A DNA stretch of 64,000 nucleotides from Oxalobacteraceae bacterium. Lineage in GTDB: Bacteria > Pseudomonadota > Gammaproteobacteria > Burkholderiales > Burkholderiaceae_D. The DNA lies in NCBI GenBank assembly GCA_010024875.1, contig RGFZ01000010.1, positions 4,728 through 68,727 on the forward strand, read 5' to 3'. Below, piece after piece: positions 36,005-54,320 of the stretch; position 1 is the stretch's first letter, and each line of letters begins with the position of its first letter. Both the position numbers and the translations under genes were made by a program. The notes beneath the pieces were generated by a model. The model made no database searches and was not told the DNA's origin. It saw nothing but the letters and a program-made list of their open reading frames with translations.

Positions 36005-36898
36005 GTGAAAATCGTCACCTATCAATGGGGTGGGCAACGTCATGTTGGTCGCTTGTCTGCGGACGGTAAGGATGTCACGCCGTTTCAGTTCGAGGGTAAG
36101 TGGCGTGAGCGCGCGAGCAGCCGGGGAGCGCTGGCGCTGATCGAGATGCAGACAGAAGGCCATACACCCCTCTCGATGGGCGCGCCCAGCCTTCCATTTT
36201 CTGCAATTACCCTAGAAGCACCGATACCACGGCCCAGACGGAATATTTTCTGCGTCGGCAAAAATTACACCGAACATGCAAAGGAATTCGCCGGCAGCGG
36301 CTTCGATTCCAGCGCGACGAAACCGGGCGATGACCTACCTGAAGCTCCCTATGTTTTTTCCAAAGTGCCCGAGTGCGTGATTGCGCCCGGTGCCACGATA
36401 CGCATCCCTTCAAAAATATCAACCGCGATCGACTACGAGGGCGAGCTAGCTGTTGTGATCGGCAAGGGCGGCTACAGCATTTCGAAGGCGCGCGCGCTCG
36501 ATCATGTATGGGGCTACACCATCCTGAATGATGTGACCTCGCGCGACTGGCAGCAGCGCCACAAGCAATGGCACATGGGAAAGAGCTTCGATACCTTTGG
36601 ACCGATGGGACCTTGCCTAGTGTCAGCAGATGAATGCGATGGCACGAACACGAGGCTGCGCACCTGGGTGAATGGCGAGTTGCGGCAGGATGCGCATACC
36701 ACAGATCTGATTTTCGATATTCCGACGCTGATCGAATGTATCTCCTCCGGTATCACGCTCTATCCCGGCGACATCATCGCGACGGGTACGCCAGTCGGTG
36801 TCGGTATCGGTTTCAAGCCGCCGAAGTATCTGCGGGCAGGCGACAAGGTACGCATCGACATCGACGGTATCGGTACGCTAGAGAACCCTGTCTTATAG
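36005..36898 (+). CDS. Fumarylacetoacetate hydrolase family protein
   Basis: CVGKNY..H, DYEGEL, NDVTSRD, GKSFDTF.PMGP, TGTP.GVG. Confidence 0.93.
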   Translation: MKIVTYQWGGQRHVGRLSADGKDVTPFQFEGKWRERASSRGALALIEMQTEGHTPLSMGAPSLPFSAITLEAPIPRPRRNIFCVGKNYTEHAKEFAGSGFDSSATKPGDDLPEAPYVFSKVPECVIAPGATIRIPSKISTAIDYEGELAVVIGKGGYSISKARALDHVWGYTILNDVTSRDWQQRHKQWHMGKSFDTFGPMGPCLVSADECDGTNTRLRTWVNGELRQDAHTTDLIFDIPTLIECISSGITLYPGDIIATGTPVGVGIGFKPPKYLRAGDKVRIDIDGIGTLENPVL

Positions 36899-36906
36899 GA
36901 GCGCTC

Positions 36907-38193
36907 ATGGGCCAATTTGTCTTTACAAATGTCCGCATCTTCGACGGCACGGGCGAGCTGCCTTACAGCGGGGAGGTGCAGGTCGAAGGCAATCGCATCA
37001 CGCGCGTTGCGCGCGGCACTCGCTCACTAGCTACGCCGGGCGCATTGGTGATCGATGGTGCGGGTGCGACGCTGATGCCCGGCATGACCGAGGCGCACAC
37101 GCACTTCAGCTGGAATGATGCGCCCTCTCTAGGGCAGATACAGCGAATGCCGCCAGAAGAACACATTCTCTGGTGCGCGCATGTTGCTGAGCGTCTGCTG
37201 AAGGCAGGCTGGACATCCTGCGTCGGTGCGGCGACAGCCAAGCCGCGACTGGATGTAGTCACCCGCAACGCGATCAACTCCGGACAAATTCCCGGTCCGC
37301 GCTATCTGGCGGCAAGTCAGGAAATCACCGTACCCGGCGGGCTCGGCGATGAGACTTTGCCTCACCTACCGTTTGAAGAATTCAGCTTTGGCGCAGTGGT
37401 GAATGGTGCAGATGAAATGCGCAAAGTCGTGCGCATGTTCTTGAAGTACGGTGTTGATACGATCAAGCTCAACCTCTCGGGCGAATATATTGCCGGAATA
37501 CCTGCTGAATTTACCCCAATGACCGATGCAGAGGTCGCGGTTGCGGTAGAAGAAGCCCGTATGCGTGGCAAGCGCCTCTCAGCGCATGCACGCTCTTGCG
37601 GCTCGGTACGGCAATGTGTGAAACATGGCATTGATCTCATTTATCACGCCAGCTTCACCGATGATGAAACGCTGGACATGCTGGAAGCGAAGAAAGACAA
37701 GCATTTTGTCGCGCCGGGTCTTGCTTGGTTGATCAACACTTCGTATCACGCATCCGAATGGGGCGTGACGCCGGAGATGGCGAAGGACATGGGCTATCAC
37801 CGCGAGCTGGAAGTAGCCATCGACAGCCTGAAGAAAATGCATAAACGCGGCATTCGCATCCTGCCGGGCGGCGACTATGGCTTTGCCTGGACCAAGCATG
37901 GCACGAATGCGAAAGACCTCGAGTATTTCGTAAAGTACCTCGGCATGACACCAATGGAAGCGCTGATCTCCGCCACGAAGTATGGCGGTCAGATCATGAT
38001 GCAACCGCATGAACTGGGACAGATCAAGGAGGGCTATCTGGCTGACATGCTTCTGGTGGATGGCGATCCACTCGCGAATATCAGCGTTCTGCAAGATCAG
38101 ACACGCATTCTCGCGGTGATGAAAGATGGCAAATTCTACAAAGAGCCGGTGATGCGCTCGGAACGCAGCGTGTATTCGCTGTCTGCAGCATAG
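36907..38193 (+). CDS. Metal-dependent amidohydrolase (prolidase/ochratoxinase-like subgroup), copy 1
   Basis: PGMTEAHTH, IKLNLSG, AHAR, IYHA, GGDYG, G.IKEGYLAD. Confidence 0.9.
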   Translation: MGQFVFTNVRIFDGTGELPYSGEVQVEGNRITRVARGTRSLATPGALVIDGAGATLMPGMTEAHTHFSWNDAPSLGQIQRMPPEEHILWCAHVAERLLKAGWTSCVGAATAKPRLDVVTRNAINSGQIPGPRYLAASQEITVPGGLGDETLPHLPFEEFSFGAVVNGADEMRKVVRMFLKYGVDTIKLNLSGEYIAGIPAEFTPMTDAEVAVAVEEARMRGKRLSAHARSCGSVRQCVKHGIDLIYHASFTDDETLDMLEAKKDKHFVAPGLAWLINTSYHASEWGVTPEMAKDMGYHRELEVAIDSLKKMHKRGIRILPGGDYGFAWTKHGTNAKDLEYFVKYLGMTPMEALISATKYGGQIMMQPHELGQIKEGYLADMLLVDGDPLANISVLQDQTRILAVMKDGKFYKEPVMRSERSVYSLSAA

Positions 38194-38206
38194 AGGAAAC
38201 CTTCGA

Positions 38207-38983
38207 ATGAGCTTGCATACCGTCGACCGTATGGCTTACGAGATCCAAGGAGAAGGCGATGCCGTGCTGATGATTCACGGCCTCGGTGGAAGCTCGAATG
38301 TCTGGACGCCGCTGATGGGGGCGTTTTCGCGCAACACGGTATTACGCTTGGATTTGCCCGGCTCGGCGCGTTCAAGCCGCGTCGAAGGTCCTCTCAGCAT
38401 TGCCAAATATGTAGATGCCTGTGTGCGCGTGATGGGTGTAGCCGGCATTGAGCGCGCGCATGTCATCGGACACTCGATGGGCACTATCGTCGCCACACAT
38501 CTCGCCGTGAGCGAACCCTCGATGGTGAAAAGCCTCGCGCTGTTCGGTCCGCTGCTCGCTCCGCCAGACCCAGCGCGATCGGCGCTGCGCACACGCGGCG
38601 CAAAGGCGCGTGATGAGGGATTACAGGGAATGCATACGATCGCAGAGACGCTGGCTGCGGCATCAATCTCGACCAGCAACCGCACACGCAAACCTGTCGC
38701 GCTCGCCTATGTGCGCGAATCGCTGATGCGGCAAGATCCTGAGGGCTATGCGCGTTCCTGTGAAGCACTGGCTGATGCGCAGCCCGCCGATGTATCAATG
38801 CTCGATTGCCCGGTGCTATTGGTGACCGGCGACGAAGACGCGGTCGCACCTGCGCAATCGGTACGAATGATGACTGATAAATTCAAGCAGGCGCGTATGG
38901 AAGTGCTGCGTGACTGCGGACACTGGACACCGACCGAGCAGCCGGAAGAATGCATGCGGCTGCTGGAGCGTTTTTACGCGTAA
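38207..38983 (+). CDS. Alpha/beta-fold hydrolase (enol-lactonase-like)
   Basis: HGLGG, GHSMG nucleophile, GDED, CGHW. Confidence 0.9.
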   Translation: MSLHTVDRMAYEIQGEGDAVLMIHGLGGSSNVWTPLMGAFSRNTVLRLDLPGSARSSRVEGPLSIAKYVDACVRVMGVAGIERAHVIGHSMGTIVATHLAVSEPSMVKSLALFGPLLAPPDPARSALRTRGAKARDEGLQGMHTIAETLAAASISTSNRTRKPVALAYVRESLMRQDPEGYARSCEALADAQPADVSMLDCPVLLVTGDEDAVAPAQSVRMMTDKFKQARMEVLRDCGHWTPTEQPEECMRLLERFYA

Positions 38984-39042
38984 AAATTTGTGCGCCTGCA
39001 TCGGGCGCTGATCACTGCAACACCACCGGGGAGGAGGCAGCG

Positions 39043-40335
39043 ATGGCTAACGTGCTGTTCACCAATGTGCAAATTCTGGATGGATCAGGCAATCAGCCCT
39101 ATCGGGGTGAGGTACTGATCGAGGGAAAGCGTATCTCGCGTGTATCACCAGCGGGTACGGGAATGCCCATGGCGGGTGTGACCGTCATCGATGGCGCGGG
39201 TGCGACACTGATGCCAGGCATGGTCGAAGGTCACACCCATTTCGCTTGGAATAATGCAGCGACGCTGGACGGCATTCAGGTGATGCCGCCGGAAGAGCAT
39301 ACGCTATGGACCGCGGGTGTTGCGAAGACTTATCTGTCGCATGGCTGGACGTCCTGCATGGGTGCGGCAACAGCTAAGCCTCGCCTTGATGTGGTGGTAC
39401 GCAATGCCATCAATAGCGGCATGATTCCCGGTCCACGTTATCTGGCGGCGAGCCAGGAGATCACTGTCGCCGGGTCGCTCGGCGACGATATTCCGGTGCA
39501 CATGCCCTACCCCGAATTCAGCTTTGGTCAGGTCGTCAGCGGTCCAGAAGAGATGCGCAAGGTAGTGCGCATGTTCCTGAAATTCGGCGTGGACTCGATC
39601 AAGCTGAATCTGTCAGGCGACAACATCATGAAAGATGCAGACGCTACGACAACCTGGATGAGCGATGAGGAAGTCGCGATCGCCGTCAAAGAAACTAAGC
39701 TGCGCGGCAAGCGCGTGATCGTGCATGCGCGCTCGGCTGAATCCGTGAAGCAGGCAATCCGGCATGGCATCGACCTGATCTTCCATTCGACTTATTGGGA
39801 TGAAGAGTCTCTGGATATGCTCGAATCGGTGAAGGATCGCGTGTTCGTCGTTCCCGGTCTGTCAGTAGTCGTCAAACTCCTGTACGAGGGTGAGCCTTAC
39901 GGATTCACTCGTCAGAAAGCAATAGAGCACGGTTATGAAGACGAGCTGTCAGCTGCAACGGAAGGCCTGACCCGCATGCACAAGCGCGGTATTCGCGTGC
40001 TCCCCGGCGGTGACTATGGTTTTGCCTGGGCGCGTCATGGCGAGAATGCAATGGACCTGCAATATCTGGTCAAGTACGCGGGCATGACACCCATGGAATC
40101 CTTGGTCGCAGCGACCAAACATGGCGGCGCGATCATGATGCAGGAGCATGAACTGGGCCTGATCAAAGAAGGCTATCTTGCCGACCTGCTACTGGTCGAT
40201 GGCAATCCGGCGGCTGATCTAAACATCCTGCTCGACCAGAAAAAGCTTCTGGCCATTATGAAAGATGGCGAGTTCTTCAAAGAGCCCGAGGGCCGTCATG
40301 GCCTAGCCGGACGCTTTGGCCGATTGGCTGCCTGA
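39043..40335 (+). CDS. Metal-dependent amidohydrolase, copy 2 (paralogue of 36907)
   Basis: ATG 39043 after GAGGAGG; PGMVEGHTH, IKLNLSG, VHAR, GGDYG. Confidence 0.9.
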   Translation: MANVLFTNVQILDGSGNQPYRGEVLIEGKRISRVSPAGTGMPMAGVTVIDGAGATLMPGMVEGHTHFAWNNAATLDGIQVMPPEEHTLWTAGVAKTYLSHGWTSCMGAATAKPRLDVVVRNAINSGMIPGPRYLAASQEITVAGSLGDDIPVHMPYPEFSFGQVVSGPEEMRKVVRMFLKFGVDSIKLNLSGDNIMKDADATTTWMSDEEVAIAVKETKLRGKRVIVHARSAESVKQAIRHGIDLIFHSTYWDEESLDMLESVKDRVFVVPGLSVVVKLLYEGEPYGFTRQKAIEHGYEDELSAATEGLTRMHKRGIRVLPGGDYGFAWARHGENAMDLQYLVKYAGMTPMESLVAATKHGGAIMMQEHELGLIKEGYLADLLLVDGNPAADLNILLDQKKLLAIMKDGEFFKEPEGRHGLAGRFGRLAA

Positions 40336-40355
40336 TCGCAGGAACGGAGAAGACG

Positions 40356-41300
40356 GTGAAAAAAGCCTGGGTCTGGTTCTGGTGGATCGTGATTGCCGTA
40401 CCGTTGCTCGCGGGCGCGATCTGGGCCATCGATGACAACGCGAAGCTGTTCTTCCTCACGCTGATGAATGGGCTGACGCTAGCTGCATTATATTTTTTGG
40501 TAGCGAGCGGCTTCACACTCGTGTTCGGCCTGATGCGCAATGTGAACCTTGCGCATGGCTCGCTCTATCTCCTGGGCGCGTATCTCGGCTTCGTGATCGG
40601 TGATGCGACCGGCTCTTGGGTGCTGGCGGTGATTGCGGGATTCATCTCCTCAGCGCTAGTCGGCTTGTTTCTTCAGATTGCTGTGTTTCGCTTCATGCAG
40701 GGACAAGACCTGCGGCAAACGATGGTCACAATCGGAATCTCGATTGTGCTGGCCGATATTATGTTGTGGATTTTTGGCGGAGAGATCTATCAGTTTGATC
40801 CGCCGAGCTGGATGATAGGCACACTGCGTCTGCCAGTGGTCGAGGCTTTCCCCGTGTACCGCGTACTGGTACTGCTGGCAGCCATCGTGATCGGTGTCGC
40901 GCTCTGGTGGTTCCTGAACAAGACTCGCGTGGGCATGATGATCCGTGCTGGCGTGGATGATCGCGCGATGCTCGCGGCTTCCGGTATCAATGTACAACTG
41001 GTGTTCGCGGTGACGTTCGCGGTTGGCGCCGGCCTAGCCGGATTCGCGGGTGTGGTCGGCGGCACCGCACTGTCGATCGCGCCCGGTGAGGATTCACGTT
41101 ACCTGCTCGCGTCATTGGTGGTGGTGATCGTCGGCGGCATGGGTAGCGTGACCGGCGCTGCTGTCGGTGCGATCGTGATTGCGGTTGCCGAACAGCTTGG
41201 TCTGGCGTACGCGCCGACCTACGGGATTGTGTTTACGTTTGCGATCATGGCCTTTGCGCTGGCGTTCCGCCCGCAAGGCCTTCTGGGAAAGAAGGTGTAG
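40356..41300 (+). CDS. livH: ABC permease (LivH family)
   Basis: GFTLVFGLMRNVNLAHG, GGMGSV.GA. Confidence 0.9.
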   Translation: MKKAWVWFWWIVIAVPLLAGAIWAIDDNAKLFFLTLMNGLTLAALYFLVASGFTLVFGLMRNVNLAHGSLYLLGAYLGFVIGDATGSWVLAVIAGFISSALVGLFLQIAVFRFMQGQDLRQTMVTIGISIVLADIMLWIFGGEIYQFDPPSWMIGTLRLPVVEAFPVYRVLVLLAAIVIGVALWWFLNKTRVGMMIRAGVDDRAMLAASGINVQLVFAVTFAVGAGLAGFAGVVGGTALSIAPGEDSRYLLASLVVVIVGGMGSVTGAAVGAIVIAVAEQLGLAYAPTYGIVFTFAIMAFALAFRPQGLLGKKV

Positions 41301-41303
41301 GCC

Positions 41304-42419
41304 ATGAGTGCAGCGTACTGGCGCAGGGCAATGCAGAGCGGCAGCGGCCATCCAACGGCTACCTCGCCAAAGCTATCCATCACCGGCGTGGTATCGCGTG
41401 ACGTATCGCACGATATCCATGGCCGTCGCATTATGGGAACACCTTGGCCCTGGCTCGCGCCACGCTATGTGATCGTAATGATCTTCCTGCTGATCTACCC
41501 ATTCATCGCCACACCCTTCTTCACATTCCAGATCGGTGCGCAGACACTGGTGCTGGGTACGATTGCACTATCGCTCACTTTTCTGGGCGGTTATGGTGGC
41601 ATGGTGTCACTGTCGCAGATGTCGATTGCTGGCATCACCGGTTACATGGTCGCGATCTGCGGTACCAGCGGCACGATGTCGATCAGCATGGGCTGGCCCT
41701 GGTGGCTGGCGGTGGCCGATGCGCTGTTGGTCGCAGTGATCGCTGCCACACTGATTGGCTGGTTATCGGTGCGCACCGAAGGCATCTATACGATCATGAT
41801 CACGCTGGCCGTCGGTGTGGCGTTCTTTTATTTCGCGCAGCAAAATTATTCGGTGTTCGCGGGCTTCCGGGGCTTCCAGAAAGTCATGCCACCCGATCTG
41901 TTCGGTGTGCAGTGGCGCGAACCGCTGCCCTTTTATTTTCTGTGCCTGTTCTGGGCGCTGGTCTGTTACTCCTTCATCCAGTATCTGGTACGCACGCCCT
42001 TTGGGATTGCTCTACAGGGCATCCGCGACAATGCGCGCCGCATGAATGCGCTCGGTTTCAATGTGACCGCGCACCGTGTCGCGGCACACAGTCTGGCGGG
42101 ACTGATTGCGGGCATCGGTGGGGTGCTCTCGGTCTGGTACAACGGAATGATCTCGCCAGGCTCGGTGAACTCGGGTGCGATGATCAATATTCTGGTCATT
42201 GCTGTCTTGGGTGGTATGCGTCGCAGCATCGGTGCGTATATCGGTGCGCTGATCTTTGTGCTACTCCAGAATTTTGCTATCGATGTATTTGATCGCGAGC
42301 GATTCAACCTTGTCATTGGCGCAGTGTTCCTGCTGATCGTGCTGTTCTCACCGGACGGCGTGCTGGGCCTATGGGCACGGCTGCGCGCGCGGCTTTCGGC
42401 AGATCGCAGGATGAAATGA
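41304..42419 (+). CDS. livM: ABC permease (LivM family)
   Basis: GYGGMVSLSQ, TPFG..LQGIRDN. Confidence 0.9.
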   Translation: MSAAYWRRAMQSGSGHPTATSPKLSITGVVSRDVSHDIHGRRIMGTPWPWLAPRYVIVMIFLLIYPFIATPFFTFQIGAQTLVLGTIALSLTFLGGYGGMVSLSQMSIAGITGYMVAICGTSGTMSISMGWPWWLAVADALLVAVIAATLIGWLSVRTEGIYTIMITLAVGVAFFYFAQQNYSVFAGFRGFQKVMPPDLFGVQWREPLPFYFLCLFWALVCYSFIQYLVRTPFGIALQGIRDNARRMNALGFNVTAHRVAAHSLAGLIAGIGGVLSVWYNGMISPGSVNSGAMINILVIAVLGGMRRSIGAYIGALIFVLLQNFAIDVFDRERFNLVIGAVFLLIVLFSPDGVLGLWARLRARLSADRRMK

Positions 42420-42564: not shown

Positions 42565-43818
42565 ATGACAAGTAACAAAAGAACTTTCATGCGTGCAGCC
42601 ATCGGCGTCGCCGTGCTGGCCGCATTTTCCATCAACGCGCATGCTGCCGACACGCTGAAAGTCGGCTTGCTCGCCACGCTGGAAGGCCCATTCGCGGTAC
42701 CCGGTCAGGATGGCATTCGTGGCGCAGAACTAGCGCTGAAACAAAAGGGGGGCATGGCTGGCGGCAAGAAGATCGAGTTCATCAAGGGCTCATCGGATGG
42801 TACGCCTGACAAGGCTGTCAACGCGACCCGCAAACTGGTCGAACAGGACAAGGTGCAGATCATGATCGGCCCGCTGTCTGGTGACGAGGGCGTCGCAGTG
42901 AAGAACTACGCGAAGTCAAAGCCCGACATCACCTTCGTCAACGGTTCCTCGGGCGCACAGGCCGCGACGCTGGTCGACCCTTCGGCGAACTTCTTCCGCT
43001 TCAACAGCGAAGGCGCACAGTGGATGGTTGGTCTGGGCGAGCATGCGCTCGGCAAAGGCTACAAGAAGATGTTCCTGATTGCCGAAGACTATGGGTTCCC
43101 CTACTCGCAAGTGCAGGGCTTCATGGCCAGCTACTGTGCGAAAGGTGGCAAGGTCGTGGACAAAGCCTGGGTACCGCTGGGCACCAAGGATTACTCGACC
43201 GTGATCGCAAAGATCCCGAAAGATATCGACGCGCTCCTGGTCGTGCTGGGCGGTTCCGATGCAGTGAACTTTCTGACGCAGTATGAGCAGGCCGGCGGCA
43301 GCAAGCCGATGGTCGGTGGTTCGATCACGGTAGATCAGACCGTACTGAACTACAAGGGCAAGCGTCGCGAGTCGCTGCTGGGTACAGCCTCCGCTGGTCC
43401 GATGGCGGATTCGATCGACACCGGCGAGTGGAAAAAATTCGTTGCGGACTACAAGGCCGCTTTCAAGGATGGCTTCCCGAGTCCGTCACTGTTCGCCTAT
43501 CTGTACTACATCAACACCAAGGCGGCACTGGATGGTCTGGATGCGGTAAAGGGTGATTTGGGCGGTGGCCAAAAGGCTTACCGTGCAGCGCTACAGAAAA
43601 CGAGCTTCGCAGGCCCCGCCGGTCCGGTGAAGATCGATGACAACCGCAATGGCGTGGGTACCACCTACATCACCGAAGTTGTGAAGACGGCCGATGGCTC
43701 CTTCACCAACAAGGTGGTGAAGCAGGTACCGAATGTCACGCAGACACTGGGTCTGTCGAAAGCCGAGTTCGACAAGATGGGCCTGGGATCACGCGACGTG
43801 CCTGACTGCCGCAAGTAA
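42565..43818 (+). CDS. Liv-type ABC substrate-binding protein
   Basis: Signal peptide; KVGLLATLEG, GPLSGDEG, AEDYGFPY. Confidence 0.9.
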   Translation: MTSNKRTFMRAAIGVAVLAAFSINAHAADTLKVGLLATLEGPFAVPGQDGIRGAELALKQKGGMAGGKKIEFIKGSSDGTPDKAVNATRKLVEQDKVQIMIGPLSGDEGVAVKNYAKSKPDITFVNGSSGAQAATLVDPSANFFRFNSEGAQWMVGLGEHALGKGYKKMFLIAEDYGFPYSQVQGFMASYCAKGGKVVDKAWVPLGTKDYSTVIAKIPKDIDALLVVLGGSDAVNFLTQYEQAGGSKPMVGGSITVDQTVLNYKGKRRESLLGTASAGPMADSIDTGEWKKFVADYKAAFKDGFPSPSLFAYLYYINTKAALDGLDAVKGDLGGGQKAYRAALQKTSFAGPAGPVKIDDNRNGVGTTYITEVVKTADGSFTNKVVKQVPNVTQTLGLSKAEFDKMGLGSRDVPDCRK

Positions 43819-43833
43819 ACAGCAAAGGTCTAA

Positions 43834-43931
43834 TGCCTCTGTAAAACGTTGATAGCTAGGCGTGCTGCCGCAGACAGTGTGGTGGCACGGCAAGGCAGTG
43901 TAATAACGCTAGCGACGTTTTGTCAGAGGCA
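43834..43931 (+). other. ~100-nt nested stem-loop between binding-protein and ATPase genes
   Basis: tgcctctgtaaaacgt pairs with acgttttgtcagaggca; inner gctag/ctagc and tgccg/cggca arms. Confidence 0.5.
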
Positions 43932-43964
43932 CTTAACGCACTATCGCACTCACGGAGAAACCTG

Positions 43965-44747
43965 ATGCTGCACAGCGCAGACATGCACAGAATCAGCGGC
44001 GATGCTCTCATACTTGAGGGCGTCACCCGCGCGTTCGGTGCACTGAAGGCTATCGATGATGTGACATTCAGCGTGCCGGCCGGCGAGCGCCGCGCCGTGC
44101 TGGGAGCGAATGGTGCGGGCAAGACCACGCTGTTCAATGCGATCACGGGCGATTTTCCGCCCACGGCGGGCCGGGTGATGTTCTTTGGCGAGGACATCAC
44201 CCGACTGCCGCCCTATGAACGCATACGACGCGGCATGCGCCGCACGTATCAGTCTTCTTTGTTGTTCCGCGAACTGTCGGTACGGGATAACCTGTATCTC
44301 GCCACGCAAGGCATCAGCGGCGGACGTTTCAGCGTGCTGCGCCGGCGCGATGATGACGCGCTGCTGGCAGCGACTCAGATCCTACTGGACCTGGTGCATC
44401 TCGACCACCTATCGGAGATGCCCGTCAGCCTGCTCTCGCACGGCCAGCAACGTCAGCTGGAAGTCGGCATGGCGCTGGCCGGTGCGCCCCGCCTCATTCT
44501 GTTTGATGAGCCAGCCGCCGGGCTGTCACCCGCCGAACGTCGCGAGCTGGTGAATATCCTGCAAGGCTTACCGCGGCATATAGGCTTTGTGCTCATCGAG
44601 CATGACCTCGACATCGCGCTGCGCGTGGTCGATCGCGTGACCATCATGCACAATGGTCGACTGCTCAAGCACGGCACGCCGCAGGAAATCGAGAACGATG
44701 CCGAAGTGCAGGCAATCTACATGGGGAGCGGTCATCATGGCCATTAA
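43965..44747 (+). CDS. livG: ABC ATP-binding protein (LivG family)
   Basis: GANGAGKT, LSHGQQRQ, LFDEP, IEHD. Confidence 0.92.
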   Translation: MLHSADMHRISGDALILEGVTRAFGALKAIDDVTFSVPAGERRAVLGANGAGKTTLFNAITGDFPPTAGRVMFFGEDITRLPPYERIRRGMRRTYQSSLLFRELSVRDNLYLATQGISGGRFSVLRRRDDDALLAATQILLDLVHLDHLSEMPVSLLSHGQQRQLEVGMALAGAPRLILFDEPAAGLSPAERRELVNILQGLPRHIGFVLIEHDLDIALRVVDRVTIMHNGRLLKHGTPQEIENDAEVQAIYMGSGHHGH

Positions 44748-46992
44748 GTTCTTTGGCCGCGGTGGCGGCAACAGCCCCATTCTCGAGATCTCGAATCTCG
44801 ATATTTACTATGGCAAGGCGCATGCGGTGCAAGGCGTCTCGCTGACTTTACAAAAAGGCGTGCTCGGCGTAGTCGGCAAAAACGGCATGGGCAAGACTTC
44901 GCTATGCAATGCGATCACCGGATTGGTACCGGCGCGCGGCAGCATCAAGCTGGCCGGTGAAGAAATCCTTGGCCTGCCGCCGCATGCGATCACGGCGAAA
45001 GGTATAGGCTATGTGCCGCAGGGACGACGTGTATGGCCATCGCTGTCGGTCGATGAGCACTTGCGTCTGGCTGCAAAAAGCGTACGCAGTGGCGAGTGGA
45101 CAGTGGAGCGCATTTATCAATTGTTTCCCCGTCTGGGCGAGCGCAAGAGTAATGGCGGCTCGCAACTGTCAGGCGGCGAGCAGCAAATGCTGGCGATCGG
45201 CCGCGCGCTGCTGTTCAATCCGCGCCTGCTGGTGATGGACGAGCCCACCGAAGGACTGGCGCCGGTGATCGTCGAGCATGTCGCTGACACGCTGAAGACC
45301 CTGGCCAGCGAAGGCAATATTTCAGTGCTGCTGATCGAGCAGAACCTGGGCGTCGCGGTCGATGTGGCCGACAACGTCGCAGTGATGATGAACGGCCGTG
45401 TCGCGCGTACCCTGCCCGCACGCGAGCTGGCTGCCGATGTGAATCTGCAGCATCAGCTGCTGGGCGTCAGACAGTCTGCCGACGACGAGGGCGGTGCAGA
45501 AGCTTTAACGGTACCCGAAGTCGATGATGAGACGCCAGTGCGCGTATTCACAGTAGCGCGCGCGGAGGACAATGGACTGCCGCGTAATGATGCGACGACC
45601 GATGCTTCGCGCACCGTACGCAACTTCAATCGCTGGAATCAGGGTGCCACAGGTGCGACATTGAAGGATCTTTCGCTGGGCGATCGTCCGTCGGAAGCAA
45701 GTTTTGAACATGTTTCGGCACCCATCGAGCATAAAGCGCAAGTCTTCGAATTCAGTGTTGCGCATACTGCGAACCGTGCAGCCTACATCGCCGGCACCTT
45801 CGACACCAAGGGCCGCGAGCTGTTCTTCCTCAAGAACTGCATGGAAAAGCTTGGCCTTCGCACGGTGACCGTCGATCTATCGACATCGGGCAAACCATCG
45901 CCGGCGAACATTCATCCGCGTGAGATCGCGCGTTTTCATCCCAAGGGCGAACGCGGCGTATTTACCGATGACCGTGGCACGGCGGTCACTGCCATGGCGC
46001 TCGCATTCGAAAATTTCATTGTGTCGCGGCGCGATCTGGGCGGCATGATTTCTGCAGGTGGATCGGGCGGGACCGCGCTGGCCACGCCCGCAATGCGCCG
46101 CCTGCCCGTGGGCATGCCCAAGGTGATGGTGTCTACCGTCGCTTCGGGTGACGTCAAGCCTTATGTAGGCCCAAGCGATATCTGCATGATGTATTCCGTC
46201 ACGGATGTGTCGGGCATCAATCGCATCAGCGAGCGCGTGCTATCGAATGCTGCGCATGCGCTTGCCGGCATGATTGCTTACGCACGTGAAGAATCCAAGG
46301 ACAGCAAGCCGGCGATTGGGTTAACGATGTTCGGCGTCACTACGCCGTGCGTGCAGGCGACGACGAAACTACTGGAAGAGGAATTCGACTGTCTGGTATT
46401 TCATGCGACCGGCACCGGTGGCCAGTCCATGGAAAAACTGGTCGACAGCGGACTCATCTCTGGTGTGATCGATGTCTCCACCACAGAGATCGCTGACGAG
46501 ATCGGCGGTGGCATACTCTCGGCAGGAACGGAGCGCATGGACGCGATCATCCGCTCGCGCATTCCGTATGTCGGTACCTGCGGCGCTCTGGACATGGTGA
46601 ATTTCTGGGCGCGCGACACCGTCCCCTCGAGATTGAATGATCGCCTGTTCTATCAGCACAATCCGAATGTCACGCTGATGCGCACCACTGTTGAAGAGAA
46701 TATCAAGATCGGCGAGTTTATCGCCGGCAAGCTCAATCAAATGGAAGGCCCGGTGCGTTTCGTGTTGCCGATGGGCGGCGTGTCAGCGCTGGATGCGCCC
46801 GGCAAGGCGTTCTGGAATCCCGAAGCGGACAATGCGCTGTTCCAGACCATAGAAAAAAACTTCAGACCGGGCAGTCAGCGACGGCTGATCAAGTCGCCAC
46901 TGCATCTGAATGATCCGCAGTTCGCGGAAGAGCTCGCAAAACATTTTCACGAGTTGAATGCGCAGTCCGGTGCGCGTCGCCGGGCGCTGTGA
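44737..46992 (+). CDS. Fusion: LivF-type ABC ATPase + Tm-1-like ATP-binding (UPF0261) domain
   Basis: N-terminal GKNGMGKT, LSGGEQQ, MDEP, EQN; acidic linker; C-terminal GTFDTKG.E, GGSGGT, P.G.PK.MVST, TMFGVTTPCV, FHATGTGG, GALDMVNF; single open frame. Confidence 0.9.
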   Translation: MAIKFFGRGGGNSPILEISNLDIYYGKAHAVQGVSLTLQKGVLGVVGKNGMGKTSLCNAITGLVPARGSIKLAGEEILGLPPHAITAKGIGYVPQGRRVWPSLSVDEHLRLAAKSVRSGEWTVERIYQLFPRLGERKSNGGSQLSGGEQQMLAIGRALLFNPRLLVMDEPTEGLAPVIVEHVADTLKTLASEGNISVLLIEQNLGVAVDVADNVAVMMNGRVARTLPARELAADVNLQHQLLGVRQSADDEGGAEALTVPEVDDETPVRVFTVARAEDNGLPRNDATTDASRTVRNFNRWNQGATGATLKDLSLGDRPSEASFEHVSAPIEHKAQVFEFSVAHTANRAAYIAGTFDTKGRELFFLKNCMEKLGLRTVTVDLSTSGKPSPANIHPREIARFHPKGERGVFTDDRGTAVTAMALAFENFIVSRRDLGGMISAGGSGGTALATPAMRRLPVGMPKVMVSTVASGDVKPYVGPSDICMMYSVTDVSGINRISERVLSNAAHALAGMIAYAREESKDSKPAIGLTMFGVTTPCVQATTKLLEEEFDCLVFHATGTGGQSMEKLVDSGLISGVIDVSTTEIADEIGGGILSAGTERMDAIIRSRIPYVGTCGALDMVNFWARDTVPSRLNDRLFYQHNPNVTLMRTTVEENIKIGEFIAGKLNQMEGPVRFVLPMGGVSALDAPGKAFWNPEADNALFQTIEKNFRPGSQRRLIKSPLHLNDPQFAEELAKHFHELNAQSGARRRAL

Positions 46993-47004
46993 CGGGAGAC
47001 AAGC

Positions 47005-47838
47005 ATGGCACGCATACCCAGAGAAAAAATACTCGCGAAACTGCACGGCATGATCGCGCGCGGCGAGCCCATCATCGGCGGCGGTGCAGGCACCGGACTG
47101 TCCGCAAAATGCGAAGAGTTGGCTGGTATCGATCTGATCGTGATCTACAACTCAGGCCGTTACAGGATGGCGGGCCGCGGCTCGCTCGCCGGGCTGCTTG
47201 CCTACGGTAATGCCAATGACATCGTAGTCGACATGGCGAAAGAGGTGCTGCCGGTCGTGAAGCACACGCCGGTGCTGGCGGGCGTGAACGGCACCGATCC
47301 TTTCATGTCGCCCGAACCCTTCCTGAAAAAACTGATGGAGATGGGCTTCTCCGGCATACAGAATTTTCCAACGGTCGGCCTGATCGATGGCCTGTTCCGT
47401 GCAAACCTCGAAGAAACCGGCATGGGCTATGGGCTCGAGGTCGAGGTCGTTCGGCTGGCGCGGAAAATGGACCTACTGACCACGCCCTATGTGTTCTCCG
47501 AGCAGAACGCGATCGATATGGCAAAGGCTGGTGCGGACATCATCGTCTGCCATATGGGCTTGACCACCGGCGGGACGATCGGTGCCGATACCGCGCTGAA
47601 GCTACCAGACTGCGTGCCACTGATCGACCAGTGGTGTGCGGCCGCAAAGAAAGTCAATCCAGACGTGATTCTCCTTTGCCATGGGGGGCCGATTGCGATG
47701 CCCGAGGATGCTGGCTATATCCTCAAACATTGTCCGCAGTTGCACGGCTTTTATGGCGCATCGAGCATGGAAAGACTACCGACCGAAGTCGCGATCACTG
47801 AACAGACCAGACAGTTCAAAAAAATAAGCCGCAATTAA
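47005..47838 (+). CDS. PEP-hydrolase-like / TIM-barrel signal-transduction family protein
   Basis: [57 protein letters not shown]. Confidence 0.9.
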
Positions 47839-47890
47839 TCCATTAACCCTTCATCTGAGCATCAGAAGAACGTAAAACCAGGAGACCACC

Positions 47891-49609
47891 ATGAGCGGAA
47901 GTGATTTTGGGAGCTTCATACTGGGTCTGATCGTCGTCGCCATTGTCGTGGCCATCGGTGTATGGCTGCTGCATTGGCTCTACCTCAGGTCATCCAAAGA
48001 GCGTGCATTCGTGCGCACGGGCCTGGGCGGGCAGAAAGTCGTGCTGAACGGTGGCGCTTTCGTGCTGCCCATCGTGCATGACGTGATCCCGGTCAACATG
48101 AACACGCTGCGACTGGAAGTCTCGCGCGGACGCGACAAGGCGCTGATCACCTTTGACCGTATGCGCGTGGATGTGATCGCTGAGTTTTATGTGCGCGTAC
48201 AAGCCTCGCCTGCGGCGATCGCCAATGCCGCGCAAACTCTTGGTCAGCGCACGATGCAGCCGGAATTGCTCAAGGAACTACTAGAAGGTAAGTTCGTCGA
48301 TGCGCTGCGCACTGTAGCGGCTGAAATGAGCATGGAAGCGCTGCATGAGAAGCGCGGTGAATTCATCAAGCGCGTGCGCGCGGTGGTGTCGGAAGACCTG
48401 ATGCAGAACGGTCTGGAGCTAGAATCGGCCTCGCTGACGCAACTGGATCAGACGGCGATGGAATTCTTCAATCCATCTAACGCCTTCGATGCAGAAGGCC
48501 TGACCCGTCTGACCGAGACCATCGAGAAACGCAAGAAACTGCGAAATGACATTGAGCAGGACACCCTGATCCAGATCCGCAACAAGAATCTGGAAACCGA
48601 AAAGCTGGCGCTGGAGATCGACCTCGAAGCAGAGGAAGCCAAGCTCGCGCAGGAACGCACACTGGAAATCGCCCGAATCGAGCAAGCGACAGCACTTACA
48701 CAGGATCGCGCCGCGAAGAAACAGCAGGCGGATCGTGCTGAGATTACCGCGCGCGAAGCCGTGGAAAAGGCGCGCATCGTATCCGAAAAACTGATCGAGG
48801 AAGAGCGGATCAAGAAGGAGCTGGAGATACAGTCGGCCGAGATCGATCGCCGCAAGCAGATCGAGCTCGCTGAGCAGCAGCGCGCGATCGACACGGCTGA
48901 ACAATCGAAGGCCGAGTTCGAGGCACGCGCGGCTGCTGACAAGGCGCGTGCACTGGCGGTTACCGAGGAAGAGCGCGTGTTCACTGCACGCGAGACCGAG
49001 ATGGCTAATCGCAAGAAAGTGATCGAGCTGATCTCTGCCGCACAAGAGGCCGAGCGCGAGGCGATTCGCCTGACCATTGCGGCGACCGCAGAAAAAAATG
49101 CGGCAGCCGACCGTGGCGCCGCGATCCGCGCCGAAGCGGAGGCCTTGGCCGATGCAGAGCGCATCCGTGTCGCCGTAACTGAGCTACGCACGCAGGTCGA
49201 GGCCGAAGGCCTAAAGCTGATGAACGAGGCGCACAACATGCTGACGCAAGAGGCACGCATCTCGGCGCTGCGGATGAAGCTGGTCGAAAAACTCGATTCC
49301 ATCGTGCGCGAGAGCGTCAAGCCAATGGAGCGCATCGAGAGCATCAAGATCCTGCATGTCGATGGGCTGGCAGGCGGCGGCAGTGGTGGTGGAGATGGCA
49401 GTGGCGGCGGTGGCAACAATTTCACCGACAGCGTAGTGAACTCAGCGCTGCGCTACCGTGCGCAAGCGCCGCTGGTCGATCAGATGTTGTCGGAGATCGG
49501 TGTGAAGACCGGTGACATCGGCAAGCTTGCCGGCGCCTTCAGCGCGATCACTGCGGCCGAGGGCGCGGAGCCGGCTGAGCTGACCCACAAGAAGGACAAG
49601 GCGAAGTGA
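47891..49609 (+). CDS. Flotillin / SPFH domain protein
   Basis: N-terminal TM, AFVRTGLGG.KVV, SPFH core (LRTVAAEM..E.LH.KR.EF), long EA-rich coiled coil, C-terminal KPME.IESIKI...YR..APL. Confidence 0.92.
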   Translation: MSGSDFGSFILGLIVVAIVVAIGVWLLHWLYLRSSKERAFVRTGLGGQKVVLNGGAFVLPIVHDVIPVNMNTLRLEVSRGRDKALITFDRMRVDVIAEFYVRVQASPAAIANAAQTLGQRTMQPELLKELLEGKFVDALRTVAAEMSMEALHEKRGEFIKRVRAVVSEDLMQNGLELESASLTQLDQTAMEFFNPSNAFDAEGLTRLTETIEKRKKLRNDIEQDTLIQIRNKNLETEKLALEIDLEAEEAKLAQERTLEIARIEQATALTQDRAAKKQQADRAEITAREAVEKARIVSEKLIEEERIKKELEIQSAEIDRRKQIELAEQQRAIDTAEQSKAEFEARAAADKARALAVTEEERVFTARETEMANRKKVIELISAAQEAEREAIRLTIAATAEKNAAADRGAAIRAEAEALADAERIRVAVTELRTQVEAEGLKLMNEAHNMLTQEARISALRMKLVEKLDSIVRESVKPMERIESIKILHVDGLAGGGSGGGDGSGGGGNNFTDSVVNSALRYRAQAPLVDQMLSEIGVKTGDIGKLAGAFSAITAAEGAEPAELTHKKDKAK

Positions 49610-50049
49610 TACGCGTCTATACCTCCAGCGTGATCGATGCCCCGGCGGAGGCGGTCTGGGGCATGATCCGCGACTTCAACGGACTGCCGAAGTGGCATCC
49701 AGCGATTGCGGAATCACGGATCGAAAACTACAGGAAAGCGGATGAGGTCGGCTGCGTGCGGCTGTTCTCGATGAAGGATGGCGGCATCATCCGCGAAAAG
49801 CTGTTGGCCCTGTCGGATTTCGAGTACTCGTGCACCTACTCGATACTTGAATCGCCGATGGGCGTGGACAACTATGTGGCGACACTGAAGCTCACGCCGA
49901 TCACCGATGGGGACCGCACCTTTGCCGAATGGAGCGCCGAGTTCGATTGCGCACCCGGTCGCGAACAGGCACTATCAGACAATATCGGCCAAGGCGTGTT
50001 CCAGGGCGGCTTCGATGCATTGAAGCGCCTGTTGCGGGAACGACGGTAA
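49606..50049 (+). CDS. SRPBCC (START/polyketide cyclase-like) family protein
   Basis: SSVIDAPAEAVW.MIRDFNGLPKWHP, GCVR, REKL; GTGA overlap with flotillin stop. Confidence 0.88.
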   Translation: MIRVYTSSVIDAPAEAVWGMIRDFNGLPKWHPAIAESRIENYRKADEVGCVRLFSMKDGGIIREKLLALSDFEYSCTYSILESPMGVDNYVATLKLTPITDGDRTFAEWSAEFDCAPGREQALSDNIGQGVFQGGFDALKRLLRERR

Positions 50050-50064
50050 ACGATCAGGCCCGCC

Positions 50065-51534
50065 GTGATTCGCGTCACTCGCTCCTCGGTCATTGACGCG
50101 CCCATCGAACGGGTGTGGGCGGTCCTGCGCGACTTCAATAGTCATATCGACTGGCATCCGGCGATTGCGCACTCCGAAATCGAGAACGGTGAAAAGCCTG
50201 ATCAGGTCGGCTGCGTACGTGCGTTTAGCCTGAAAAACGGTGCGGTGCTGCGCGAACAACTGCTGACGCTGTCGGATGAAAACTATGTATCCACCTACTG
50301 CATACTGGATTCGACGATACCGCTCAAACGCTACGTCGCGACAGTGAAACTCTCGCCCGTCACGGATGGCAACCGGACTTTCTGGCATTGGGAGTCGACT
50401 TTCTCGACCCCGCCTGGCATGGAGGCGGAGCTGTCAAATGCGGTGGGCACCGGCGTCTACGAAACCGGCTTCAAGGCCTTGCAGGAGTATCTGCGCAGGC
50501 CGGGCGCGAACAACAAGACGACCAAAGCGCCTGCCAACGTCAGCACACCGACCGGGACAGCGCATTCGATCATGATGAGCCGCCACGGCGGATCGGAGGT
50601 CTTCAGCTTTGCGGAGACGACATTACGCTCGCCACAGGCGGGGCAAGTCACGCTAAAGCATACCGCCATCGGCGTCAACTACATCGATGTCTATGTGCGC
50701 AATGGTTTGTATGGCGCGCTGATCGAATTGCCGGGTACACCGGGCATGGAGGCGGCGGGTGTGGTCACTGTCCTTGGTCCGGGGGTGACGGAATTCGCGG
50801 TCGGCGATCGCGTCGCCTACGCATGCCCGCCGGTCGGCGCGTACACAACCGCTCGCACGATGGATATTGGCCAACTGGTGAAGCTGCCCGCGAACATCAG
50901 CGACGACATCGCTGCTGCAGTGATGCTGAAGGGCATGAGCGCAGAATATCTGCTGCATCGCATACGTCCAGTAAAGGCCGGTGACACGGTGCTGGTGCAT
51001 GCCGCTGCGGGCGGCGTAGGATTGCTACTCTGCCAGTGGGCGTCGCGCCTCGGTGCCAAAGTGATCGGCACGGTGTCATCGGAAGCGAAAGCACAGCTGG
51101 CCGCAGAGAATGGCTGCGGGCTGCCCATTGTCACGCGCGACTACCACTTCGCGGATGCGGTACTGGAAGCGACTGGCGGCAAAGGTGCGGACATCGTGTT
51201 CGACGGTCTAGGCAAGCTGGCGTTTGAGGAAAACCTTCGCGCACTCGCCTTGTGCAGTCATTGGGTGAGCTTCGGTCAGGCCAGCGGCCCGCATGATGCG
51301 GTCGCGCTAGAGCGTCTGGGCAGCAAATCGATTGCATTGTCGCGTCCGGTGCTTTTCCATTACACCGCCGACCTGGACACGCTGAAGCAAATGGCGAGCA
51401 ATGTGTTCGCGGCGATACGCGCCGGCGTAATACAGCCGCATATCGGCGCGCGCTTTCCACTGGTAGAAGCGGCGAAAGCACATGACTTTCTGGAATCTCG
51501 TGCGAGCACCGGCGCGATTATTCTCGAACCCTGA
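50065..51534 (+). CDS. Fusion: SRPBCC domain + quinone oxidoreductase (Zn-independent MDR)
   Basis: N-terminal SRPBCC paralogous to 49606; C-terminal IGVNYIDVY.R.G, PG.EAAG, AAAGGVG, FGQASG, STGAIIL. Confidence 0.88.
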   Translation: MIRVTRSSVIDAPIERVWAVLRDFNSHIDWHPAIAHSEIENGEKPDQVGCVRAFSLKNGAVLREQLLTLSDENYVSTYCILDSTIPLKRYVATVKLSPVTDGNRTFWHWESTFSTPPGMEAELSNAVGTGVYETGFKALQEYLRRPGANNKTTKAPANVSTPTGTAHSIMMSRHGGSEVFSFAETTLRSPQAGQVTLKHTAIGVNYIDVYVRNGLYGALIELPGTPGMEAAGVVTVLGPGVTEFAVGDRVAYACPPVGAYTTARTMDIGQLVKLPANISDDIAAAVMLKGMSAEYLLHRIRPVKAGDTVLVHAAAGGVGLLLCQWASRLGAKVIGTVSSEAKAQLAAENGCGLPIVTRDYHFADAVLEATGGKGADIVFDGLGKLAFEENLRALALCSHWVSFGQASGPHDAVALERLGSKSIALSRPVLFHYTADLDTLKQMASNVFAAIRAGVIQPHIGARFPLVEAAKAHDFLESRASTGAIILEP

Positions 51535-51560
51535 TGTTCTGATTCCTGCACGGAGATAGC

Positions 51561-52040
51561 GTGAAACTCAACGGACTGGCCCACTTGGCGATACGCACCG
51601 CCGATCTGGAAAAAACACTGCAGTTTTATACCGAGGTGATGGGCTTCGTCGAAGTGCCGCGTCCCAGCGGACTGACCTTCCCGGGTGCCTGGCTAGCGTT
51701 GCCGGGCCATGAGTCTGCGGCGATCCTCCATTTTTATGCGGGCAGCGCGGCGGCAGGGCCGGATGGCGGCATCCCGGCAGACAACGATGAAGGTATCGCG
51801 GATCATCTAGCGCTGTCGGCCAGCGGTTTCATCGCTTTTCGTGATCGCTTTATTCAGCACGATATCGCATGGCGCGCGCAGCATCTAAAGGGATCAAATA
51901 ACTGGCAGATGTTCGTGCACGATCCGAACGGCCTGAAGATCGAGCTGGCGTTCAATCAGCAGTATGAGCAAGGCCTGCCGGTGGAAATACCTGAATCTAA
52001 CCGCTACAAGGCTGCCGAACGATTTTTTGCGTCGGCCTGA
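51561..52040 (+). CDS. VOC / glyoxalase superfamily protein
   Basis: LAHLAIRT.DLE..L.FY, DHLAL, QMFVHDPNG..IEL. Confidence 0.88.
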   Translation: MKLNGLAHLAIRTADLEKTLQFYTEVMGFVEVPRPSGLTFPGAWLALPGHESAAILHFYAGSAAAGPDGGIPADNDEGIADHLALSASGFIAFRDRFIQHDIAWRAQHLKGSNNWQMFVHDPNGLKIELAFNQQYEQGLPVEIPESNRYKAAERFFASA

Positions 52041-52076
52041 AGCACTTCTTTCGCAGTCAACCTGTGAGCACGAACT

Positions 52077-52421
52077 ATGGACGCAAACTGGCTCTCTGAA
52101 TTCTGGCGGTCGGCCATGATGTTCCTTGGCCAAAGCGTAGAATCGGCATCGATCGATGCCGGCTGGCTGGTTGGCACTGTCGCGGCGGTGCTGGTGATTA
52201 GCTTTCTGCTGTCGCTGCCAAATCAGTACAGCCTGATGTGTCGGGGCTTGCTGGTGAATTTCGCCGAGTGGGCCGTGGACCGACTGGTGTCGATGATCTT
52301 CGGTTTCATCGGCACCCTCTTCATCGGTTTTTTGTTTGTGGTCAGCCTGATTGCAATCTGCGGCATTCTGGGCGGCCTACTAGTGTTCGGCGTCAAGCAC
52401 CTGCTGGTGGTCTTTCAGTGA
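52077..52421 (+). CDS. Hypothetical membrane protein
   Basis: 114 aa with 2-3 hydrophobic segments; last co-directional gene of the operon. Confidence 0.55.
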   Translation: MDANWLSEFWRSAMMFLGQSVESASIDAGWLVGTVAAVLVISFLLSLPNQYSLMCRGLLVNFAEWAVDRLVSMIFGFIGTLFIGFLFVVSLIAICGILGGLLVFGVKHLLVVFQ

Positions 52422-54287: not shown

Positions 54288-54320
54288 AGACAACAACAAT
54301 AACGAGGAGATTTTGCTGTC

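Follow-up and report, generated by a model that had tools for sequence, protein, structure and literature searches.

A conserved ABC importer gene cluster with a LivF::UPF0261 fusion and its own flotillin gene in an Oxalobacteraceae bacterium

A cluster of co-directional genes at positions 36005-52421 of a 64,000-nucleotide stretch of DNA from an Oxalobacteraceae bacterium (contig RGFZ01000010.1; the whole stretch is called the window below) encodes an ATP-binding cassette (ABC) importer whose LivF-type ATPase is fused to a UPF0261 domain, together with a TIM-barrel protein, a flotillin, SRPBCC proteins and several hydrolases. The cluster is a conserved operon-like unit, probably transcribed from a TetR-controlled promoter at about 35874-35935. 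The component families are all known, and the combination is an ABC importer operon with unusual features. Our tentative interpretation is that TetR controls an operon for the uptake and processing of a hydrophobic or aromatic compound with an amide or ester linkage, which is modified, probably phosphorylated, at the transporter; we give this interpretation somewhat less than an even chance. An earlier reading of the DNA, made from its letters and open reading frames (below, the sequence-only reading), knew of no substrate or pathway described for this combination, and we found no described pathway in the literature searched. The same literature contained no description of the fusion, of the cluster, or of a flotillin encoded in an importer operon.

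Genes were called as six-frame open reading frames (ORFs) of the window and assigned to families by a Pfam scan, NCBIfam models and sequence matches to PDB entries. All genes of the cluster lie on the plus strand. The fusion is a single uninterrupted ORF of 751 amino acids (44737-46992). It consists of a LivF/UrtE-type ATPase domain (44737-45465, residues 1-243; Pfam ABC_tran), a linker of about 100 residues predicted to be disordered (45466-45765), and a UPF0261 domain (45766-46992; Pfam UPF0261 and UPF0261_C) that corresponds to the N-terminal half of the plant protein Tm-1 and belongs to the MarK family. A protein search yielded more than 120 clusters of homologues at 90% identity, all about 750 amino acids long and 66-93% identical, and each with the three Pfam domains of the window protein. 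By name they come from Herminiimonas, Elsteraceae, Casimicrobiaceae, Methylomirabilota, and Alpha- and Betaproteobacteria. A library of representatives at 50% identity added at least 12 full-length fusion clusters, down to about 40% identity. Independent gene callers gave the same 751-residue product with the same start on three other assemblies. The full-length homologues and the identical calls rule out a read-through or a sequencing artefact, and the fusion proposed in the sequence-only reading is thus genuine. An internal size control is the ordinary HAAT operon of the window, whose unfused LivF has 236 amino acids. The public (NCBI) name of the fusion is 'ABC transporter permease' (e.g. 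INQ48_40445 in CP063167.1 and several records of metagenome-assembled genomes). This label is wrong, since the fusion has no membrane domain.

The Walker A motif, the LSGGEQQ signature and the Walker B motif of the LivF domain are invariant across 60 homologues. The nearest NCBIfam model for this domain is UrtE, with a score below the cut-off. An AlphaFold2 model built with 60 homologues has confident domains at residues 12-243 and 345-745. Between them, residues 244-343 have a predicted confidence (pLDDT, predicted local distance difference test) below 50 and no secondary structure. Within the linker, R275 and R299-W300(-N301) are invariant, and the motif P-T/N-R-W is retained in fusions as far as 38-40% identity. 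Such a conserved R-W motif in a disordered tether is what one expects of a short linear motif for docking.

The divergent fusions are instructive. Six of them (P0129, P0133, P0134, P0145, P0148, P0165) have lost the D-T-K residues and the FHATG histidine of the UPF0261 domain, and in another (P0128) it is the ABC half that is degenerate instead, in Walker A and the signature. Judged by these motifs, each of these proteins has a pseudo-enzyme as one of its halves. As the fusion is kept even when one half has degenerated, the tethering itself seems to be selected.

The UPF0261 domain passes the curated cut-offs of PF06792 (206 bits) and PF23189 (301 bits), as well as that of the NCBIfam model NF002673 (617 against 520). 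Its PDB matches are Tm-1 (3wry, 3e-97) and MarK (9mpy, 3e-55). MarK (Saro_1862 of Novosphingobium aromaticivorans, PDB 9MPY) is an ATP-dependent aromatic kinase that phosphorylates phenolic hydroxyls and releases ADP; it is the first and only UPF0261 member with a characterised activity (PMC12624787). The ATP-site residues D14, T15 and K16 of MarK correspond to D356, T357 and K358 of the window protein, which are invariant in the 60 homologues; the ATP-binding lysine is K20 in Tm-1 and K16 in MarK. Gly195 and His219 of MarK, which contact the phenolic hydroxyl, and the stacking His304 correspond to G533, H556 and H641, again invariant in the 60 homologues. The ketone contact His348, however, is replaced by L685, and the hydrophobic wall Thr196/Phe283/Ile285 by V534/M620/N622. 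Thus the domain looks catalytically competent, but for another substrate, and by the precedent of MarK it may be kinase-like. The sequence-only reading had spoken of 'sensing or modification'; the precedent sharpens this towards phosphorylation (PMC12624787).

The likeness to MarK consists in the common two-lobed UPF0261 fold and the retained equivalents of the D-T-K and Gly/His/His residues. Orthology was considered and rejected on the residue mapping, in which His348 and the hydrophobic wall are replaced. The settings differ as well: MarK is a free homodimer, has neither a TIM partner nor a fusion to an ABC protein, and is encoded in an acvCDEF carboxylase operon. No acvCDEF/hpeCBAD carboxylase genes were found in the cluster or in related loci.

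The gene following the fusion starts 12 nucleotides after it and encodes a PEP_hydrolase-like TIM barrel (47005-47838; Pfam PF09370, 434 bits, 1.8e-130), whose PDB match is the structural-genomics protein Mll9387 (2p10, 8e-123). In plants, a UPF0261 domain and such a TIM barrel form the two halves of Tm-1 within one chain (PMC5028733). Both halves are present here, adjacent and highly similar to their counterparts, as is seen from the matches of the N-terminal half to 3wry and of the TIM barrel to the bacterial 2p10, so that the sequence-only reading had identified the pair correctly. The difference is in the architecture: the plant protein joins the two halves in one polypeptide, whereas here UPF0261 is joined to the ABC ATPase and the TIM barrel has a gene of its own. 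Both families are widespread, occurring in bacteria, archaea and, as Tm-1-like proteins, in all land plants, with one catalytic activity known.

To assess how well the block is conserved, we used the flotillin as the anchor in metagenome contigs, which gave 80 loci, and searched their flanks for homologues of the window proteins, counting for each gene the loci where the contig reaches far enough. The sequence-only reading had staked itself on the block being conserved as a unit. Indeed, none of the informative loci lacked a gene of the stretch that runs from LivH to the first SRPBCC protein: LivH was present in 18/18, LivM in 20/20, the substrate-binding protein (SBP) in 25/25, LivG in 32/32, LivF in 37/37, UPF0261 in 41/41, the TIM barrel in 50/50 and the first SRPBCC protein in 60/60. 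Farther downstream, the SRPBCC part of the SRPBCC::MDR protein was found in 47 of 51 loci, and the MDR domain in 40 of 44. From LivH to the first SRPBCC protein this amounts to 100% synteny over 18-60 informative loci, at about 70% amino-acid identity and across phyla. The gene arrangement is far beyond chance, since all related loci that are long enough have this order.

Ten loci with homologues of the fusion (about 53-91% identity) have a common order: hydrolase trio, LivH, LivM, SBP, LivG, LivF::UPF0261, TIM barrel, flotillin, SRPBCC, SRPBCC::MDR. The trio consists of an amidohydrolase, an alpha/beta hydrolase and a second amidohydrolase, and its internal order varies among the ten loci. 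The alpha/beta hydrolase is kept in all loci with 10-kb flanks, and both amidohydrolases in L083, L085-L088 and Variovorax. This order is shared by loci of Beta-, Alpha- and Gammaproteobacteria and of Methylomirabilota (Herminiimonas, Reyranella, Arenicellales, Casimicrobiaceae, Variovorax paradoxus VAI-C), and the cluster family is frequent in metagenomes from soil and freshwater. Judged by these comparisons, the conserved core is made up of two amidohydrolases, the alpha/beta hydrolase, LivH, LivM, SBP, LivG, LivF::UPF0261, the TIM barrel, flotillin, SRPBCC and SRPBCC::MDR. A further scan of genome contigs used the fusion alignment. Its patterns fell in the ABC domain, so that most of the 80 loci found were ordinary LivF genes and only L001-L009 and L060 were informative. 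On the high-GC actinobacterial loci and on L060/L009, naive ORF calling followed by Pfam gave mostly spurious ORFs and little context.

The 14 genes and the terminal ORF listed in the sequence-only reading are all present at 36005-52421, with the families assigned there. As a conserved unit, however, this set of fourteen plus one does not hold. The fumarylacetoacetate-hydrolase (FAH) family gene, often the first of the cluster, is present in L081, L085, L087, L088 and Variovorax and absent from L083 and L086. The VOC gene is found in 16 of 41 informative loci and also in Herminiimonas and Variovorax. The 114-residue membrane ORF occurs in none of 38 informative loci and was seen in L081/L082 only; the Baeyer-Villiger monooxygenase (BVMO) gene beyond the regulator is likewise limited to the closest relatives. 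The divergent TetR gene is usual in related loci (seen in L081, L086, L087 and L088).

The genes of the cluster are co-directional, tightly spaced and conserved in order, as in a single operon. The distances between them range from -11 to 146 nucleotides, and most starts are preceded by GGAG-type ribosome-binding sites. In the window, LivG and LivF overlap by 11 nucleotides, and the stop of the flotillin gene overlaps the start of the SRPBCC gene. In related loci, overlapping stops and starts are found at the junctions TIM/flotillin, amidohydrolase/LivH and LivH/LivM. These overlaps support co-translation. No intergenic terminator was found in a scan of the window, and terminator-like matches were in total no more numerous than in shuffled sequences.

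The candidate operon promoter is a sigma-70-like site on the plus strand, TTGACT-18-TACGAT (35874-35903), and is followed on the same strand by an imperfect palindrome (35912-35935), a candidate TetR operator. Between the window and L081, a relative with 91% identity, this stretch is near-invariant, and the flanking intergenic DNA has diverged. The regulator gene (35097-35861, minus strand; Pfam TetR_N) is divergent from the operon, and so is the FMO/BVMO-like (flavin-containing or Baeyer-Villiger monooxygenase-like) gene beyond it (33413-35074, minus strand), as the sequence-only reading had it. The maximal TetR ORF has 254 amino acids with a GTG start. Its helix-turn-helix lies at residues 80-107, and the L081 relative is called at 174 amino acids, so that an internal start (Met at about 35756 or 35681) is probable.

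The importer itself has the composition of the HAAT family: two permeases of the LivH/UrtB type (40356-41300) and the LivM/UrtC type (41304-42419), both matching Pfam BPD_transp_2; the LivG/UrtD-type ATPase (43965-44747; Pfam ABC_tran and BCA_ABC_TP_C); the LivF-type ATPase of the fusion; and an exported periplasmic SBP (42565-43818; Pfam Peripla_BP_6). The SBP alone among the cluster proteins has a signal peptide, of the Sec type (MTSNKRTFMRAAIGVAVLAAFSINAHA). Its best PDB match is 4zpj, next come the aromatic-acid binders of R. palustris (4evq, 4ey3, 4evs, 4f06), and then urea binders. The subunit set is the same as in known HAAT importers (LivJHMGF, UrtABCDE), and the ATPase motifs are intact. 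The differences are the 500-residue C-terminal extension of LivF and the position of the SBP gene between the permeases and the ATPases.

Four hydrolases precede the importer. The FAH-family enzyme (36005-36898; Pfam FAA_hydrolase, 9.5e-73) is nearest to the NCBIfam model HpaG-C, below its cut-off. Amidohydrolase 1 (36907-38193, start approximate; probably of the carboxypeptidase/ochratoxinase-like group of COG1228) and amidohydrolase 2 (39043-40335, start approximate) both match Pfam Amidohydro_1; they are paralogues with 62% identity and have a visible HxH metal motif (HTHF). Their PDB matches, at 1e-41 to 7e-44, are Cc2672 (3mtw), an arginine carboxypeptidase (3be7) and ochratoxin-degrading amidohydrolases. 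With an NCBIfam Xaa-Pro dipeptidase model they score 235 and 211 against a cut-off of 500, and their nearest relatives are N-acyl-amino-acid/dipeptide carboxypeptidases and ochratoxinases. The alpha/beta-fold hydrolase between them (38207-38983; Pfam Abhydrolase_1) is nearest to PcaD-type enol-lactonases (NCBIfam pcaD, 134.8 bits, cut-off 255.85).

The flotillin gene is followed by an SRPBCC gene (49606-50049; Pfam Polyketide_cyc2) and by a gene encoding an SRPBCC domain fused to an NADPH:quinone-reductase-like MDR domain (50065-51534; SRPBCC plus ADH_N/ADH_zinc_N). The N-terminal domain of the latter (50065-50520) is 56% identical to the preceding SRPBCC protein. The two SRPBCC sequences match Polyketide_cyc2 with 89.5 and 73.8 bits, and their PDB relatives (7tmu, 3f08, 3cnw) are uncharacterised. 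The MDR domain contains both ADH_N and ADH_zinc_N and is nearest to NADPH:quinone reductases (PRK10754, 272 bits, cut-off 348). The amidohydrolases and the SRPBCC domains thus form two ancient pairs of tandem paralogues, both kept across the clade. In L087, a UbiB/ABC1 gene stands in place of the reductase.

The flotillin (47891-49609; Pfam Band_7 and Flot) has an N-terminal membrane anchor, an SPFH domain, a long Ala/Glu-rich region and a Flot domain. The hydrophobic stretch at residues about 9-31 is followed by RSSKER, so that the bulk of the protein is predicted to be cytoplasmic. It scores 52.7 bits with the FloT equivalog model NF058507 (cut-off 700) and therefore falls outside that equivalog. 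The 80 closest metagenome flotillins all lie between the TIM and SRPBCC genes and never elsewhere. No gene for an NfeD partner was found in the locus tables of the related loci examined. Versions of the cluster without flotillin occur in Falsiroseomonas (L005) and in actinomycetes (L006/L007). An ABC importer that depends on a flotillin scaffold is known from Staphylococcus aureus, where heme import via IsdF/FhuC requires FloA (PMC10147376). However, FloA is a general scaffold encoded elsewhere, whereas the flotillin considered here is dedicated, encoded inside the importer operon and has no accompanying NfeD gene. We found no earlier case of a nutrient-importer operon with a built-in flotillin gene; with a defined client at hand, the long-debated role of flotillins in bacteria would become testable.

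A variant arrangement was seen on a plasmid of Yoonia sp. SS1-5 (NZ_CP151764.1, L174, 14093-23589), where the fusion is accompanied by a 1129-residue 'flotillin domain-containing protein' and two SRPBCC genes. These are followed by genes for FAD-binding and molybdopterin-binding subunits (Mo-hydroxylase), MoxR and a VWA protein in place of a quinone reductase gene.

The UPF0261/TIM pair also occurs in unfused form. In Thermomicrobium roseum (NC_011961.1, L175, 9013-18926), a separate UPF0261 gene starts 13 nucleotides after LivF and is followed by the TIM gene and then by cyclase, PEP (phosphoenolpyruvate)/pyruvate-binding, FAD-binding, FAH, ABM, PEP-utilising and Mo-hydroxylase genes. The split PEP/pyruvate-binding and PEP-utilising genes of this locus resemble two-component phenol and acetovanillone kinases. 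In actinobacterial and other loci, unfused pairs adjoin Liv genes, sometimes with SRPBCC genes (also in L060), and Azospirillum has a UPF0261-TIM-SRPBCC trio. The pair lies beside a sugar-type ABC importer (CUT1-type in NGR234) and a sigma-54 regulator in S. fredii NGR234 and Mesorhizobium. On a Vibrio plasmid it is accompanied by TetR and a small membrane protein only, with no transporter. These varied contexts indicate that the pair is a portable module that has been repeatedly coupled to uptake systems and SRPBCC proteins. By this comparison, the LivF fusion with its dedicated flotillin is the elaborated proteobacterial form of the module.

We infer the chemical steps, and the role of the flotillin, as follows. 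A compound that has a hydrophobic or aromatic part and is linked through an amide or ester would be captured in the periplasm and imported. On leaving the transporter it would meet the tethered UPF0261 domain and the TIM barrel, where by analogy with MarK a hydroxyl could be phosphorylated with ATP, trapping or activating the compound. The cytoplasmic hydrolases would cut amide, ester or lactone bonds, and where FAH is present, beta-diketone bonds too. The SRPBCC proteins may hold a poorly soluble substrate or product, the fused reductase may reduce a quinone or an enone, and the flotillin may keep the components together at one membrane patch. The ligand shuttling and the organisation at the membrane proposed in the sequence-only reading belong among these inferences. 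A substrate of the class proposed is suggested by the nearest relatives of the SBP (aromatic-acid binders), the amidohydrolases (carboxypeptidases and ochratoxinases), the alpha/beta hydrolase (PcaD), FAH (HpaG) and the MDR domain (quinone reductase). The Mo-hydroxylase, cyclase, ABM and PEP-utilising genes of related loci argue for the same class. That the UPF0261/TIM pair is tied to uptake is supported by the unfused pairs, which come after LivF in Thermomicrobium or adjoin Liv importers in actinobacteria and CUT1-type importers in NGR234. N-acyl-homoserine lactones were considered as a substrate, prompted by the strain VAI-C, which utilises them; this was rejected as a coincidence and not evidence.

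Several points weigh against this interpretation. The UPF0261 domain of the window is nearer to Tm-1, for which no catalysis is known, than to MarK, and lacks His348 and the hydrophobic wall. MarK needs no TIM partner, so that its precedent does not account for the TIM barrel. The loss of the D-T-K and His residues in some divergent fusions means that a tethered domain can persist without catalysis. The SBP and the LivF half also resemble urea-type systems. Since the enzymes other than UPF0261 score below the NCBIfam cut-offs, the chemistry of the cluster is a family-level guess, and the flotillin's role is deduced from co-occurrence. Finally, no ring-cleavage or oxygenase step for a complete catabolic route is conserved. 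The 'complete pathway' of the sequence-only reading accordingly finds no counterpart in the loci compared: no enzyme set for full mineralisation is conserved.

The extra C-terminal domains of importer ATPases are usually regulatory, as in MalK, MetN, ModC and OpuAA. The UPF0261 domain and the TIM barrel could therefore be a sensor rather than an enzyme, binding ATP and/or the cytoplasmic substrate and gating the ABC ATPase by trans-inhibition or energy sensing. We consider this possible but on balance doubtful. Several divergent fusions retain the domain without its ATP-site and His residues, and Tm-1 itself works through binding, not catalysis. Moreover, annotation places the TIM-barrel family among signal-transduction domains, and its genes lie beside sigma-54 regulators in rhizobial and Azospirillum loci (PMC5028733). 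On the other hand, the catalytic-type residues are invariant in the 60 clade members, and MarK shows that the UPF0261 fold is that of a kinase. The regulatory domains of MalK, MetN, ModC and OpuAA share with the fusion the position at the C-terminus of the nucleotide-binding subunit, but they are small rigid ligand sensors, whereas here an enzyme-type domain of 400 residues is attached by a tether of about 100 residues that in the model is disordered and not rigid. Further, the pair also occurs unfused, with other transporter classes, or without any transporter, as on the Vibrio plasmid.

The downstream genes allow another explanation, in which the importer together with flotillin, SRPBCC and the SRPBCC::quinone reductase handles membrane lipids or quinones. 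Rather than catabolism, the cluster could then serve to salvage or detoxify a hydrophobic compound, quinone-like or isoprenoid, that SRPBCC carries and for which flotillin provides the membrane platform. Lipids and quinones are ligands of SRPBCC/START-like folds, and animals have SPFH proteins fused to lipid-transfer domains. The fused MDR domain is indeed nearest to NADPH:quinone reductases, and the reductase is replaced by UbiB/ABC1 in L087 and by a Mo-hydroxylase with SRPBCC neighbours in Yoonia. However, three to four soluble hydrolases are conserved equally tightly, the SBP is similar to proteins that bind small aromatic acids or urea, not lipids, and the SRPBCC proteins have strong matches to Polyketide_cyc2 and only weak ones to the COQ10-type family. 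This explanation thus seems unlikely. It is still more improbable that the cluster is a co-inherited mosaic without a common pathway, made of an operon for hydrolases and importer, a Tm-1-like pair and a stress module of flotillin and SRPBCC. The spacers of 145-146 nucleotides on both sides of the SBP gene could hold internal promoters, the accessory genes (FAH, VOC, BVMO, membrane ORF) vary by locus, and the versions lacking flotillin exist. Against a mosaic stand the complete synteny across phyla at this level of divergence, the covalent fusion at one junction and the overlapping stop and start codons at others, as well as the fact that the closest flotillins are never found elsewhere.

The uptake-and-processing interpretation can be taken one step further, to importer-coupled group translocation in a flotillin-bounded patch. 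Here the tethered kinase would phosphorylate the emerging substrate, and a flotillin assembly on the cytoplasmic face would, with SRPBCC carriers, confine a hydrophobic or reactive intermediate until hydrolases and reductase have acted on it; we regard this stronger version as rather a long shot. It works like phosphotransferase-type group translocation, where the substrate is phosphorylated on entry and hence trapped. The proteins, however, are unrelated, the phosphate donor there is PEP whereas here it would be ATP, and the coupling is hypothetical. If uptake-coupled phosphorylation in a flotillin-bounded patch were true, it would be categorically new and would show which biochemical function the plant Tm-1 family had ancestrally. 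The covalent tethering of a kinase-type enzyme to an ABC ATPase suggests that uptake is coupled to chemical modification, which is not a described feature of ABC importers. The SBP and TetR of the operon provide two handles for fishing the natural ligand of the UPF0261/TIM pair. A candidate experimental host is the cultured Variovorax paradoxus VAI-C, which carries the full cluster on its chromid (INQ48_40485-40420 on CP063167.1); any member of the conserved clade would be equally suitable as a model.

The VOC/glyoxalase-fold protein, an accessory member, is encoded at 51561-52040 (Pfam Glyoxalase), and the lineage-specific hydrophobic membrane ORF of 114 amino acids, which has no Pfam hit, at 52077-52421. 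Compared with L081, this ORF has 23/11/48 substitutions at the three codon positions; the excess at the third position makes it probably a real gene. No Rfam or tRNA features were found in the window.

The spacer between the SBP and LivG genes (43819-43964) contains an insertion of about 101 nucleotides (43832-43932) relative to L081. The spacer folds as a long imperfect hairpin with dG of -56.9 kcal/mol (z = -4.1 against shuffles). No second copy of the insertion was found in the window. It may be a palindromic element of the REP/MITE (repetitive extragenic palindrome or miniature inverted-repeat transposable element) type, or serve to stabilise the mRNA between the cistrons, downstream of the SBP gene.

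Downstream of the cluster, positions 52442-57695 hold an apparently separate sugar-acid set, with an FAH-like gene on the minus strand, a PhyH dioxygenase, an IlvD/Edd dehydratase and a galactarate/altronate dehydratase. These genes also lie 3' of the cluster in L081/L082, but not in more distant loci. Upstream, the ordinary HAAT-type importer operon occupies 26845-32452 and encodes an SBP, two permeases, a short-chain dehydrogenase/reductase (SDR), LivG and the unfused LivF; a further SDR gene follows it at 32659-33405.

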